Translations under genes and position numbers: made by a program
Notes under the pieces: model-generated
What the model was told of the DNA's origin: nothing
Seen by the model: the letters and a program-made list of their open reading frames with translations, nothing else
Database searches by the model: none
Shown here: piece by piece, positions 1,365-3,191 of the stretch
How positions within the stretch are numbered: the stretch's first letter is position 1
How the letters are laid out: every line of letters starts with the position of its first letter
Source: a virus
Lineage: Duplodnaviria > Heunggongvirae > Uroviricota > Caudoviricetes
Virus record (IMG/VR): IMGVR_UViG_2529292907_000020
Location: 1 to 4,878 of that record
Direction: 5' to 3' (one strand)
DNA: 4,878 nt

Positions 1365-1676
1365 CTATGCTGTTGCTTTAGTGACTTTCCCTTCCGCATA
1401 TTTCCAGCCACCAAAAATATCCGCCCCATCGGGCAGAACTGCGACTTCCGCAACACTATGCGAGGCTGGCCAAAGCGTGGTCACATCTGTTGCAATTGAC
1501 CGGACAACACCATCTTTGTCATACATTATCTTGATAGTGTCTTCGCTAAATAATTTCTGCGATGTGTACCACTCGCGTCCCTCTGAGTCTCTCAAAATCA
1601 GTGCGCCAAACCCCGCCAGCGCTTTCTCATCATCAGTTTCTGCAGATGACATAATAAAATTTTTCATATCCATCAT
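1365..1676 (-). CDS. Phage tail-fibre assembly (Tfa) protein, N-terminal domain only (103 aa; C-terminal half missing)
   Basis: ORF starting MMDMKNF...; segment KIMYDKDGVVRSIATDVTTLWPASHSVAEVAVLPDGADIFGGWKY resembles the N-terminal region of e14/lambda-type Tfa proteins as I recall them (for example KMVYDHNGVICCIEKDV...VVEVPD...SGKWMF); ATG at 1676..1674 overlaps the tail-fibre stop TGA (1675..1673) as ATGA; terminates at TAG 1367..1365 where full-length Tfa proteins continue for about 80 more residues. Confidence 0.7.
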   Translation of the reverse strand: MMDMKNFIMSSAETDDEKALAGFGALILRDSEGREWYTSQKLFSEDTIKIMYDKDGVVRSIATDVTTLWPASHSVAEVAVLPDGADIFGGWKYAEGKVTKATA

Positions 1677-2746
1677 GATAAACCTACCGTTACCCATTGT
1701 GTGCCAATAAGCATTTGAAGCGGACGAGCGTTTACAGTCTGCGCACCCGCTGTGAATGTAATACCCCGGATTAATAAGCCGGTATCGATAGAAATAAAGT
1801 TTGGGGTCGTCGTTCCTATGGTCGATACCGAGCCTTCCCTAAGTTTGATAACTCCTTTTGCTGACTCAGCAACGGTGACAGAGATATCTGCATCTGCCCC
1901 TCCGTTAAACATCGCATAGCCGTTAGCATCACCTGATACAGAAATTTTCCGCGCAGTAGTCAATGTGGCCACAGAATTAGGTGGATTCCTGCTCGTATAA
2001 ACTTCAGTCCAATTGCTTTCTGTTGTACCACTACGATTTTTAATGAAAATTCTCGGGTTATCAGTTCCGTTAAGGCTAAGCGCTATTCGCGAAGAATAGA
2101 AACTTGTCCCAGCAAAGTTGATATGAACATAATTCTGGTTTGGCTCAGGGTTTCCGGCATCACCGATGGGTAGCGTATAAACATTAGTAATGTCAGTGTT
2201 TGCAGAGGTGGCACCAACTCCGCCAAATCCGAATGCGCCAACCAACATGAGAGCGCCTGTTGTGCTATCAATAACAGATGCCTGAGCATTTTTTTTAGCA
2301 GCAGTACCGACTCCCAGATAATTTAACATGGAATCAGCGCTATCTCTTGCCAGTAAACTTCTGGCCGCCCCAGTAAAATCAGCAAGGGCAGCAACATCCG
2401 CACCTGTAAAATATGGAAGTTTGTTAGCTGAACCTGTAAGAGCAGCCAAGGTAGTCAAAGTGGCATCGAGTGGCTGGGAGGTTTTATTCATCGCTACAAT
2501 CAGCTTTGTTACCAGTCCTGCTACGTTGCCGTCATCAAGCACATCATTGCCGCCCTTATCACAAATAAACTGGGCCAGAGCCGAAGCAATAAATGTTGCC
2601 TGTCTAACCGCCTTGTTCACTTCTTTGGAACTGGCCTTTCCGGAAGAAAATCCCGTGGATAGTGCCGCCAGTGCGAGGTATTCTGCTTGAGTTAATACAT
2701 TCGCTCCACCAGCTGCGGCAAAAGGTTTAATATCATTAGTTGGCAT
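1673..2746 (-). CDS. Phage tail-fibre protein (357 aa) with a P2 gpH-like conserved block followed by a variable Gly/Thr/Ser-rich C-terminal region
   Basis: Block SQPLDATLTTLAALTGSANKLPYFTGADVAALADFTGAARSLLARDSADSMLNYLG parallels recalled P2 gpH KQPKDATLTALAGLATAADRFPYFTGNDVASLATLTKVGRDILAK...; GGAG 6 nt upstream of ATG 2746; followed by a translationally coupled tfa gene. Confidence 0.85.
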   Translation of the reverse strand: MPTNDIKPFAAAGGANVLTQAEYLALAALSTGFSSGKASSKEVNKAVRQATFIASALAQFICDKGGNDVLDDGNVAGLVTKLIVAMNKTSQPLDATLTTLAALTGSANKLPYFTGADVAALADFTGAARSLLARDSADSMLNYLGVGTAAKKNAQASVIDSTTGALMLVGAFGFGGVGATSANTDITNVYTLPIGDAGNPEPNQNYVHINFAGTSFYSSRIALSLNGTDNPRIFIKNRSGTTESNWTEVYTSRNPPNSVATLTTARKISVSGDANGYAMFNGGADADISVTVAESAKGVIKLREGSVSTIGTTTPNFISIDTGLLIRGITFTAGAQTVNARPLQMLIGTQWVTVGLS

Positions 2747-2748
2747 TG

Positions 2749-3191
2749 TTAACTCCAGTAACCATTATCAAATCCGGCAATAGCCGTATCCTGAATATCA
2801 AATCCGAACATTGGGTGTGCAGGATCGATAACATCAAGGCTTTTAACCCTGACGCCTGCTGCCTTCACTGTTAATTCACCAGCTTCGATTACTTCAATTA
2901 ACTCTGCCGATGTGTTGGCAATACCATTTAATGCAATTGCGTTAATGCTTATCGACATATCCATGTTGTCGATTATTTGCATCTCAATTCCGGTCCCTTC
3001 AAATACTTGATCAAGCAAGTCCTCAAGATCACCGACTGTTCCATCCCACTGGTTAATCGCTATCTGCGCTTTTAAGACCAATCGATAAACATCATCGCTG
3101 AGTACGGTAAAACCTGAGTCCGGATCATATGGTCCCTGCCAGTTTCCCTGGTCCCAACCAAGCCCGTCCGTATCCCACGAGAAATAGACAT
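2749..3191 (-). pseudogene. 5'-truncated phage tail/baseplate gene immediately upstream of the tail-fibre gene (position equivalent to P2 gene I), interrupted by the IS629 insertion
   Basis: Minus-strand frame is open from the IS629 boundary (3191) down to stop TAA 2751..2749 with no ATG at the 5' end (...FSWDTDGLGWDQGNWQGPYDPDSGFTVLSDDVYRLVLKAQIAINQWDG...GFDNGYWS*); the stop lies 2 nt before the tail-fibre ATG. Product family not confidently recognised. Confidence 0.5.

Follow-up and report, generated by a model that had tools for sequence, protein, structure and literature searches.

Does a complete tail-fibre gene that stands between two broken partners represent the survivor of a module decaying in place, or do the lesions on its two sides differ in age and meaning? 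This question is raised by the stretch of 4,878 nucleotides analysed here (the window), in which an intact fibre gene (positions 1673-2746, minus strand, 357 aa) is followed by a short gene for the chaperone Tfa (1365-1676, minus strand, 103 aa) and preceded by a gene that is cut by an insertion sequence (IS). A preliminary description had interpreted these genes as a P2-type I-H-G module that had decayed in place and was truncated at both ends, with tfa as a pseudogene created by a local deletion. The genes themselves had been correctly recognised: judged by their Pfam and PHROG matches, the three ORFs are real homologous genes and not chance ORFs, and the functional order is indeed wedge protein, fibre, chaperone. 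Moreover, several features fit a decayed P2 module: Tfa is about 75 C-terminal residues short of its relatives, the remnant of a deleted cargo gene abuts tfa, an IS breaks the upstream gene, and both the fibre tip and the Tfa N-domain have P2-like ancestry. Nevertheless, the comparisons presented here make this interpretation unlikely. The account that we regard as probable as a whole combines a SEN34-like prophage backbone, a chimeric fibre, an old and inherited shortening of Tfa and a recent IS insertion.

The prophage and its place in the chromosome

Judged by its gene content and gene order, the region appears to be part of a temperate, SEN34/Brunovirus-like myovirus prophage beside pphA of E. 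coli, namely its distal end, which serves host recognition. Positions 1 to about 1095 of the window are matched by all complete E. coli genomes compared (5426 of 5426), and the match reaches positions 1239-1242 in only three of them, each with a related prophage at the pphA site. The junction with the chromosome is at about 1095/1096; between it and the remnant of a cargo gene lies the terminal prophage segment (1096-1239). This remnant (1257-1335, plus strand) comprises the last approximately 26 codons and the stop codon of a gene for an SOS-response-associated peptidase (SRAP) and converges on tfa: homology to the locus L013 begins at position 1256 of the window, the L013 ORF matches the SRAP family (PF02586, E=1.7e-25), and its C-terminus aligns to the translation of the window. 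The prophage lies immediately downstream of pphA, a prophage hotspot; intact prophages related to it are integrated there as well, and their genes are arranged as Baseplate_J, Wedge1, fibre, chaperone. For the prophage studied here, the order on the minus strand is Baseplate_J (beyond the window), the Phage_Wedge1 wedge gene, fibre, chaperone, the deleted cargo region and the prophage end. The sibling and carrier loci were read to 10 kb of flank per side, less at contig ends; the siblings encode E217_gp31_N sheath, Phage_Tube_PhiTE and Pam3_gp18 proteins, and one sibling prophage is carried on a 44-kb IMG/VR contig.

The nearest cultured phages are SEN34, vB_EcoM-683R1, Omnitron and Klebsiella ST11-VIM1phi8.3. 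In SEN34, genes for Baseplate_J (399 aa), DUF2612/Phage_Wedge1, the fibre, a small chaperone and an opposite-strand cargo protein follow each other in the same order as in the window prophage; the wedge protein is 54% identical, and residues 1-146 of the fibre share 52% identity with the SEN34 fibre. In SEN34 as well as in the siblings with 100% identity to the window, the Phage_Wedge1 (DUF2612) gene lies directly 5' of the fibre gene and is itself preceded by Baseplate_J. SEN34 differs by another fibre C-terminus and a chaperone of 117 aa, and the SEN34-related prophage GZ2408P has a 137-aa chaperone without similarity to the Tfa of the window. Conversely, the window prophage is distinguished from SEN34 by a tip and a chaperone N-domain of a P2-like lineage and by its IS-broken wedge gene.

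The gene upstream of the fibre, which had been regarded as I-like, encodes a Phage_Wedge1/DUF2612 baseplate wedge protein. Its 3' remnant (2749-3191, minus strand; residues 72-218 of 218) matches PF11041 (E=4.7e-27, profile positions 70-180 of 181) and not Tail_P2_I (PF09684), and it agrees with residues 72-218 of the GZ2408P protein at 144 of 147 positions. When the intact 218-aa protein was compared with P2-like I by BLASTP, there was no meaningful match (E=6.2). The identity of this gene as well as the SEN34-like synteny argue against a decayed P2 module, and the P2-type order I-H-G gives way to a SEN34-like backbone.

The insertion in the wedge gene

The wedge gene is interrupted by an IS3-family element, IS629/IS1203, of which the left 795 bp lie in the window (3192-3986, plus strand) with orfA (3246-3572), the frameshift pseudoknot (3527-3643) and the 5' part of orfB. 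The element starts at 3192 with TGAACCGCCCC and shows 100% identity with copies that carry the annotation 'IS3-like element IS1203 family transposase'. The assignment is supported by the orfA/orfB arrangement with a -1 frameshift pseudoknot (Rfam ALIL, 121.5 bits), an IS3 transposase (NCBIfam NF033516), TGAACCG terminal inverted repeats and a 3-bp target duplication. The window holds only the left end of the IS; both ends were read in the sibling L006, where the same IS is flanked by an ATG 3-bp target duplication and the prophage upstream is intact. Since the IS is simply inserted, with the remainder of the prophage on its far side in L006, the module is not truncated at this end, contrary to the idea of a decayed P2 module. 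Within orfB, the IS itself carries the 5' part of a group II intron (3987-4878, plus strand), which starts with GTGTG and contains a reverse transcriptase (RT) ORF from about position 4657. The intron is 99.9% identical to copies with ltrA (group II intron reverse transcriptase/maturase) in 2567 of the 5426 E. coli genomes; it was recognised by BLAST, and an Rfam scan of the window returned ALIL only and no group II intron or sRNA family. The IS of L006 is free of the intron. The source contig ends within the intron. IS629/IS1203 with a group II intron is an ordinary element, and what is particular to this locus is only its position in the wedge gene.

The siblings also allow the insertion to be dated. 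An undisrupted 218-aa wedge gene was found in L004, L005, L007, L008 and L010; the earlier statement that the upstream gene was cut by IS629 is correct. Carriers of the cassette that lack the IS include L007 (GCA_024755885.1) and the Logan runs ERR13601046 and SRR29324804. In L005 and L008, the wedge gene is whole and positions 1-3193 of the window are matched with 100% identity, i.e. with zero substitutions; therefore, the disruption is too recent for the retention of the fibre to carry meaning. These alignments indicate that the wedge gene was cut by a simple IS629/IS1203 insertion very recently: the IS would have entered the wedge gene, and the group II intron would then have entered the IS. 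Loss of the wedge protein would abolish baseplate and tail assembly, and the IS probably also blocks read-through from the late operon into fibre and tfa by a polarity effect. Because the wedge gene is broken, the cassette is dead in this strain, and the intact fibre ORF reflects the recent date of the IS event and not a use of the fibre.

The alternative that the intact fibre has been kept by domestication, for example because the host uses it as an adhesin or in a tailocin, separately from the broken prophage, fits the persistence of an intact ORF between broken genes. However, the lack of any substitution over 3193 bp as compared to the IS-free siblings speaks against it. The fibre has no promoter-like site of its own (from the IS to the fibre, none was detected on the minus strand), the fibre is frameshifted in a sister contig, and a tail-like particle cannot be built without the wedge protein. 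Taken together, we consider domestication extremely improbable. For annotation, the lesson is that an intact gene between two broken ones can simply mean a very recent insertion.

The fibre and its chaperone

According to the alignments, the fibre is full length and chimeric, with an N-terminal module of the prophage family and a P2-like gpH tip. The N-terminal module (residues 1-146; 2309-2746, minus strand) is the SEN34-like family's own and includes a widely conserved fibre block at about residues 89-153. It corresponds to positions 1-159 of the tail-fibre PHROG 11303, which the fibre matches with E=9e-76, and it shares 77% identity with the fibre N-terminus of the same-site GZ2408P prophage; more than 100 homologues carry this N-terminus with varied C-termini. 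The first 60 residues, for which no place had been found in the preliminary description, belong to this conserved module, and the N-terminal approximately 146 aa presumably attach to the baseplate. The C-terminal receptor-binding region (residues 133-357; 1676-2350, minus strand) is of P2-like gpH ancestry: 182 of its 225 residues (81%) are identical to the C-terminus of the 542-aa protein P0012, which belongs to a genuine P2-like operon, I-H-G, whose G has 175 aa. The separate gpH-type receptor-binding region that had been described is thus borne out by this identity. The 357-aa fibre matches no Pfam family, and PF12571 (Phage_tail_fib) and PF03406 (Phage_fiber_2) are absent although P2-like H contains both; this is a further argument against a P2 module that decayed in place.

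The relation to the P2-like lineage is seen, for example, in the locus L015, which encodes Tail_P2_I, a 542-aa H and a 175-aa G. The window resembles it in the fibre tip (81% identity), in Tfa, of which residues 1-102 are 65% identical to G, and in the position of tfa after the fibre gene with coding regions that overlap by 4 nt. In contrast, the window module has no gpI homologue and none of the H N-terminal domains, and its Tfa is devoid of the C-domain that G of L015 keeps. The C-terminal 225 aa of the fibre would have been imported from the P2-like gpH lineage along with the chaperone N-domain of that lineage.

The idea that the 357-aa protein might be a fragment of a longer fibre was rejected since four homologue clusters are also 357 aa long, in agreement with the earlier view that the fibre is intact. 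Exactly this fibre is recorded in 30 blocks of the collection. A scan of genome contigs with the fibre gave pattern matches, none of which was confirmed by tblastn as a relative, and an AlphaFold2 model of the monomeric fibre was unusable (pLDDT 51). At the junction of the two fibre modules, the coding strand contains a homopolymer of eight A residues (2289-2296, minus strand; codons 151-153, KKN). In the sister contig L031, there are seven A residues at this place, and the fibre is split into ORFs of 220 and 191 aa; the 220-aa product (P0029) matches the first 43% of the query at 100%, which is what a frameshift at the homopolymer would produce. This frameshift is consistent with decay of the entire prophage lineage.

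The tfa gene is located directly 3' of the fibre gene: its ATG (1676-1674) overlaps the TGA of the fibre (1675-1673) in the sequence ATGA. An alternative upstream ATG at 1697 would give a Tfa of 110 aa. It had been noted that the C-terminal half of Tfa is missing, and the family profiles agree: Tfa covers only positions 3-52 of 131 of the Pfam profile Caudo_TAP (23.1 bits, cut-off 22.1), in which the C-domain takes up about positions 53-131, and positions 2-103 of 178 of PHROG 136 (E=7e-30), and its relatives of 175-186 aa are 61-65% identical over residues 1-100 and then continue for 75-85 further residues. A relocated or frameshifted C-domain was detected neither in the window, using tblastn with three C-domains and with the positive controls found, nor in the flanks of any carrier, again by tblastn and up to 10 kb per side, less at contig ends. 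The part that is present is a complete N-terminal fibre-binding domain. In a phmmer search, residues 1-100 align with residues 1-103 of Mu Tfa (5yvq_B, E=4.1e-12). The AlphaFold2 model of Tfa (pLDDT 96.9) superposes on the 103 residues of phage Mu U (TfaMu, 5YVQ chain B) that are resolved in complex with the Mu fibre tip (Foldseek TM 0.90, rmsd 1.7 A). According to this model and the alignments, the Tfa of the window appears to be exactly the complete fibre-binding N-domain of Mu Tfa, a beta-sandwich, and to end at the domain boundary.

The missing half of Tfa might also be explained by the remnant of a host-range switch driven by a Din invertase (Gin/Pin/Cin-type), if half of Tfa and its flank had been lost with the invertible segment. 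Such elements occur elsewhere: the relative L030, which has the same receptor-binding region, encodes a fibre and Tfa together with an invertase of the resolvase family, and contains a second Tfa (Tfa') and a fibre tip in inverted orientation; another prophage at the pphA site has pinE with inverted fibre and tfa genes. However, a search for an invertase gene and its crossover sites, as suggested in the preliminary description, yielded neither in the window: there is no invertase ORF, no gix/cix-like site at up to 3 mismatches and no match to the core motif. Moreover, the sole inverted repeat of the window has 14 nt, which is at chance level, no inverted fragment of Tfa or fibre is present, and tfa is adjoined by the SRAP gene remnant rather than by an inverted cassette. 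A lost invertase switch is therefore very unlikely.

Origin and possible function of the short Tfa

Two observations place the shortening of Tfa before the IS. First, siblings without the IS, whose tail operons are uninterrupted, have the identical 103-aa allele. Second, the locus L014, which has a different phage backbone, contains a diverged short tfa with the same breakpoint and stop region and with about 13 nt beyond the stop in common. The short alleles group together: their nucleotide identity is 97% and 81% in the two halves, as compared to at most 70% to any long allele. Because the same allele occurs in IS-free siblings and the same breakpoint in an unrelated backbone, the short tfa is not the result of local decay, and the idea of a P2 module decaying in place fails at this end, too. 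The C-domain would have been lost once, long before the IS and intron events in this strain. The short tfa and the receptor-binding region would then have moved together; at least two phage backbones now contain them, and purifying selection appears to have acted on the short tfa. The dN/dS ratio between the two short alleles is 0.15-0.21 (for 0.15, P=7e-6 against neutrality); for the adjacent fibre region, it is 0.08-0.13. The dN/dS signal of tfa could instead reflect recombination with unsampled full-length alleles, and it could also come from exchange between prophages without selection for infectivity. The 103-aa Tfa cluster is recorded on 16 contigs. A search for homologous proteins with the 103-aa Tfa collected five candidates, which is too few to show that close full-length relatives are absent, and a scan of metagenome contigs gave pattern matches, none of which was confirmed as a relative by tblastn.

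In the current model of Tfa proteins, which is based on the structures of Mu Tfa and Pam3 gp25, a variable N-domain binds the fibre, and a conserved C-domain trimerises and drives assembly. TfaMu has 175 aa, and a passage in PMC9608196 describes a further conserved, helical C-terminal domain that is proposed to trimerise; the same passage, citing North et al. 2019, assigns the trimerisation of the fibre to this C-domain, which is absent from the Tfa of the window. Can a Tfa without this domain work? We see about an even chance that the short form remains able to bind the tip of the fibre and serves as a minimal chaperone or cap. More tentatively, and at less than even confidence, we propose that the 103-aa Tfa works alone on a gpH-type tip, that the C-domain may be dispensable for some fibres, and that N-domain-only Tfas would represent a recurrent architecture of independent origins in SEN34-like, P2-like and Mu-like phages that travels with the receptor-binding module.

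This proposal draws on N-domain-only ORFs of 98 to 104 aa in other phages, whose length is kept within clusters and which are packed into P2-like and Mu-like tail operons. One cluster (P0230, 98 aa) belongs to a P2-like operon with I, H, the 98-aa ORF and the sheath gene, another (P0214/P0288, 103-104 aa) to a Mu-like operon. As in the window, these predicted proteins consist of the N-domain only, are encoded directly after the fibre gene and end 5-12 residues past the conserved W; they are only 35-36% identical to the window Tfa and arose independently. The suspicion that all short-form representatives are contig-end artefacts was rejected: one cluster is, several are not. The earlier question whether naturally short Tfas exist can thus be answered in part: there are short ORFs elsewhere, but the closest relatives of the window Tfa have 175-186 aa. 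A Citrobacter Tfa (L012, 176 aa) is also a long form. None of the P0230 and P0214/P0288 short forms was seen in a cultured phage, and the homologues from cultured phages whose annotation was inspected (Hafnia phage yong1, Enterobacter phage FENT2, Serratia phage MyoSmar, Pectobacterium phage phiTE and phage 186) are all full length with 165-174 aa. We know of no viable phage that uses an N-domain-only Tfa.

It is likewise a real possibility, if one that falls short of an even chance, that on the same backbone the short Tfa is no more than a dead relic: an essential C-domain was lost in a single old deletion, and the allele persists because it is inherited clonally and exchanged by recombination among resident prophages, with cassette fibres that cannot trimerise unless the full-length Tfa of another prophage helps in trans. 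All other sampled partners of this receptor-binding region keep the C-domain in a full-length Tfa of 175-178 aa, and the two-domain form in all inspected cultured phages points in the same direction. The role in driving trimerisation that is proposed for the C-domain in the passage of PMC9608196 cited above, the fibre frameshift in the sister contig and the small number of carriers, as counted above for the Tfa cluster and the exact fibre, are also in agreement with a relic. In contrast, the low dN/dS of the short alleles resembles the value for the neighbouring fibre, the cut lies exactly at the domain boundary and leaves a confidently folded domain, and the independent short forms occur in compact operons without room for a lost domain.

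Seen as a whole, the cassette is a routine prophage host-range module inactivated by an IS, and the only point of wider interest is the inherited N-domain-only chaperone. This allele appears to be selectively maintained and mobile between backbones and, together with the independent short forms, provides a natural test of the requirement for the C-domain. Whether the C-domain is required also bears on the engineering of fibre/chaperone pairs for the reprogramming of host range.

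The prophage end at pphA and its SEN34-like backbone

Three consecutive minus-strand reading frames were found at the positions and with the lengths assigned to them in the preliminary description: the gene for the tail fibre assembly chaperone Tfa (tfa, 1365-1676, 103 aa, or 110 aa from an alternative ATG at 1697), the fibre gene (1673-2746, 357 aa), the stop codon of which overlaps the tfa start as ATGA, and an open upstream frame of 147 codons, the remnant of a wedge gene (2749-3191). The final 4878 bases of contig AIFW01000026.1 (GCA_000249615.2) match the window at 100% identity; the contig ends inside a group II intron. 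Its left part carries yebW (1-276, plus strand) and pphA (277-936), and up to about position 1095 it matches every complete E. coli genome (5426/5426). To the right of this position, different prophages adjoin pphA by their tail-fibre ends in different genomes: strain GZ2408P carries an apparently intact relative of the window's prophage, strain 1506 another relative that shares positions 1096-1239, and strain PK8241 an unrelated prophage that carries pinE together with an invertible fibre segment. Because the genomes diverge there into different prophages, the junction of prophage and chromosome is placed at 1095/1096, in an integration hotspot. No fewer than three different prophages adjoin the site just downstream of pphA in this way (L001, L003, L035), and the SEN34-like prophages among those at the site differ in their cargo, which is an acyltransferase, a hypothetical protein or an SOS-response-associated peptidase (SRAP). 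The called length of YebW, 91 aa in the window and 63 aa (192 nt) in RefSeq entries of other strains, varies even among near-identical sibling contigs; this looks like a matter of start-codon choice.

Between tfa and the prophage end, the window retains only the last ~26 codons and the stop codon of the SRAP gene (1257-1335, plus strand), converging on tfa. A related locus, L013, has a longer copy matching PF02586; in the window the 5' part has been deleted and the remainder joined to the terminal segment of the prophage at ~1240-1256.

The wedge remnant matches PF11041 (DUF2612, Phage_Wedge1; E=4.7e-27, profile positions 70-180 of 181) and aligns with residues 72-218 of the GZ2408P prophage's "baseplate wedge 1 family protein" (218 aa), with 144 of 147 positions identical. 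The gene had been described as I-like, and this holds for its position but not for homology: the remnant does not match Tail_P2_I, and the intact wedge protein has no similarity to a P2-like gpI (E=6.2). From annotation and synteny, the protein would fill a gpI-like wedge role. Contigs carrying exactly the fibre of the window (L004, L005, L007, L008, L010) all share one gene order, which ends at pphA: E217_gp31_N sheath, Phage_Tube_PhiTE tube, assembly chaperone, a 651-aa tape-measure-sized protein, Dit_like, Pam3_gp18, spike, Sheath_initiator, Baseplate_J (399 aa), Phage_Wedge1 (218 aa), fibre (357 aa) and the 103-aa Tfa. Among cultured phages, the closest in wedge protein and fibre N-terminus alike are Salmonella phage SEN34 (Brunovirus), a described temperate phage (PMC5261728), Escherichia phages vB_EcoM-683R1 and relatives, Citrobacter phage Omnitron and several Klebsiella temperate phages. 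SEN34 has the same order of Baseplate_J, DUF2612, fibre and small chaperone, followed by an oppositely oriented acyltransferase gene. The locus is thus a member of the SEN34-like prophage group rather than a P2-type I-H-G module, of which two of the three defining features are lacking. In the window's prophage lineage (L004, L005 and L006) the spike and Sheath_initiator genes are separated by a non-coding gap of ~290 nt (e.g. L005:7503-7791) with one called ORF of 32 aa. The two genes abut in L013 and the prophage of GZ2408P, and the gap may be a small insertion.

Interruption by an insertion sequence and a group II intron

An IS3-family element starts at 3192 with TGAACCGCCCC and comprises orfA (3246-3572), an ALIL frameshift pseudoknot (3527-3643, 121.5 bits) and, after it, only the start of orfB. 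Copies with 100% identity to it carry the annotation IS1203-family transposase, which we take to be the IS629 group. That IS629 cuts the upstream gene was recognized correctly: sibling contigs L005 and L008 match window positions 1-3193 at 100% identity and have an uninterrupted wedge gene. The module is, however, interrupted rather than truncated at this end. In the 5.1-Mb chromosome L006 the same element occupies this site between the two copies of a 3-bp duplication (ATG), and the prophage genes upstream of it are intact and 99.99% identical to those of L005. The insertion is simple and very recent. Since the 3.19 kb have acquired no substitutions, the intactness of the fibre ORF is uninformative on selection in this strain. 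Given the general role of wedge proteins, baseplate assembly should fail without this one. A pattern scan of the minus strand between the element and the fibre gene detected no promoter-like site, so that expression of the fibre gene and tfa would depend on read-through across the element and the intron. The latter (3987-4878), which starts with GTGTG and carries a reverse transcriptase ORF from ~4657, interrupts orfB at 3986/3987. Copies carrying ltrA in 2567 of the 5426 complete E. coli genomes are 99.9% identical to it, and the element in L006 lacks it; Rfam gave no group II family match in the window, even at E<=0.1. Insertions of IS elements and introns into prophages are commonplace.

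A complete and chimeric fibre

The fibre is intact at 357 aa, as had been proposed. Four other 90%-identity clusters are likewise 357 aa long (73-91% identity, 100% coverage) and located between a Wedge1 and a Tfa gene, and the protein is therefore not a fragment of a longer fibre. Its N-terminal 60 residues, previously regarded as unplaceable, belong to the conserved N-terminal module of the family: residues 1-146 match PHROG 11303 (positions 1-159, E=9e-76) and are 77% identical to the GZ2408P prophage fibre, the C-terminus of which is unrelated. This N-terminus recurs in more than 100 proteins of Citrobacter, Escherichia, Hafnia, Enterobacter and Salmonella, combined with different C-termini (Gp53-like_C (PF21882), PF07484, PF21722 or PF13884), and the module presumably serves attachment to the baseplate. 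The suggestion of a distinct C-terminal region of receptor-binding type is supported by residues 133-357, which are of gpH type and 81% identical to the C-terminus of P0012, a 542-aa fibre carrying PF12571 and PF03406 and encoded in a genuinely P2-like operon (Tail_P2_I, H, 175-aa Caudo_TAP, sheath). That the fibre is a mosaic is borne out by identity profiles and by dS values. By sequence, the fibre matched no solved structure, and the quality of the AF2 model of the monomer was too low for use.

An A8 tract lies exactly at the junction of the N-terminal module and the receptor-binding region (codons 151-153; 2289-2296, minus strand). In the sister contig L031 the tract is A7, and the fibre is consequently split into ORFs of 220 and 191 aa; either a sequencing error in the homopolymer or real slippage could account for this. 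The homologue P0029, which matches the initial 43% of the fibre at 100% identity, has with 220 aa the length that would be expected for a frameshift at this tract.

The locus was also considered as an invertible segment. In L030, a relative whose receptor-binding region is of the same type, a full Din-type switch occupies L030:3001-5966, with a fibre of 345 aa, a Tfa of 176 aa, an inverted Tfa' of 141 aa, an inverted Gp53-like_C fibre tip of 128 aa and a resolvase-family invertase of 185 aa. Neither an invertase gene nor a crossover site nor an inverted cassette occurs in the window, and this reading was rejected.

An old N-domain-only Tfa

The observation that Tfa stops short at 103 aa holds against its relatives. 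Residues 1-100 are 61-65% identical to Tfas of 175-186 aa, which run another 75-85 residues; homologues in cultured phages include those of P1, P2, PSP3 and Mu. The match to Caudo_TAP covers only profile positions 3-52 of 131, and sequence coding for the C-domain is absent in any frame of the window and in the fetched flanks (up to 10 kb on each side) of every carrier locus. The 103 residues align with residues 1-103 of Mu Tfa, exactly those resolved in the fibre complex 5YVQ, and the AF2 model (pLDDT 96.9) superposes on 5yvq_B with a TM of 0.90 in both directions and an rmsd of 1.7 A. By alignment and fold, the 103-aa Tfa is a whole domain. PMC9608196, citing North et al. 2019, describes the N-domain as binding the fibre tip and the conserved C-domain as a proposed helical bundle that trimerises the chaperone. 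The chaperone of the window is thus a Tfa-family N-domain that lacks the C-domain.

The short tfa had been interpreted as decay of this remnant. This is not the case: the allele is identical in all IS-free siblings, and its breakpoint is common to L014. This locus belongs to a different phage, whose head, recombination and tail genes are not those of the window's prophage and whose fibre, of 412 aa, has the same type of tip. L014 has a 102-aa allele, 88-89% identical to that of the window. Both proteins end in ...V(T/S)KA(TA/I)*, both genes in AAAGCAA, a 3-nt indel and a TAG stop, and 11 of the 13 following nucleotides match before the sequences diverge. This common end points to one truncation event. 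Beyond it, the window and L013 have the 3' end of the converging SRAP gene; L014 has, immediately after the gene, a GC-rich stem-loop and a T-run that, as read from the sequence, resemble an intrinsic terminator (CACGGCCTCC...GGAGGCCGTTTTT, L014:10310-10380), which suggests that the short tfa is the end of a transcription unit there. In L013 the same 103-aa allele, with a nearly identical tfa, accompanies a diverged fibre tip (dS 0.78). The short alleles form a group of their own: among them, nucleotide identity is 97% in codons 1-57 and 81% in codons 58-100, as compared to at most 70% with any sampled long allele. The tfa of the window is therefore a truncated form, but an old one that has been passed on. 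Between the window and L014, 18 synonymous and 12 non-synonymous differences give a dN/dS of 0.15 (P=7e-6 versus neutrality); the value for the diverged 3' part is 0.21 (P=2e-3) and that for the adjacent fibre tip 0.08-0.13. By these values, the N-domain-only Tfa has apparently been maintained.

Do short Tfas occur naturally? Among the best 150 representatives at 50% identity, 123 reach 150 aa or more (median 178) and 27 stay below 140 aa, 14 of these with 95-112 aa. In most of the 16 aligned short forms (98-122 aa), 5-12 residues follow the conserved W. One short cluster is made up of partial sequences at contig ends; others are complete ORFs on long contigs, with constant length within a cluster. 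P0230 (98 aa) lies in a compact P2-like operon (Tail_P2_I, 329-aa fibre, 98-aa ORF, sheath gene 11 nt on), and P0288 (103 aa) follows the fibre genes of a Mu-like prophage. Complete short Tfa-like ORFs exist elsewhere; the nearest relatives of this Tfa have 175-186 aa. Arguing against function, every other sampled partner of the window's fibre tip is a Tfa of 175-178 aa, and the cultured-phage homologues with inspected annotation are all full length. We rate the idea that the short Tfa still works as somewhat doubtful to about evenly balanced.

In function, the locus is a standard host-range cassette of wedge, fibre and chaperone, and the modular exchange of fibre tips along with their chaperones is well known. 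The only element out of the routine is the N-domain-only Tfa that has apparently been maintained. If it works, the two-domain model of Tfa action would need qualifying.
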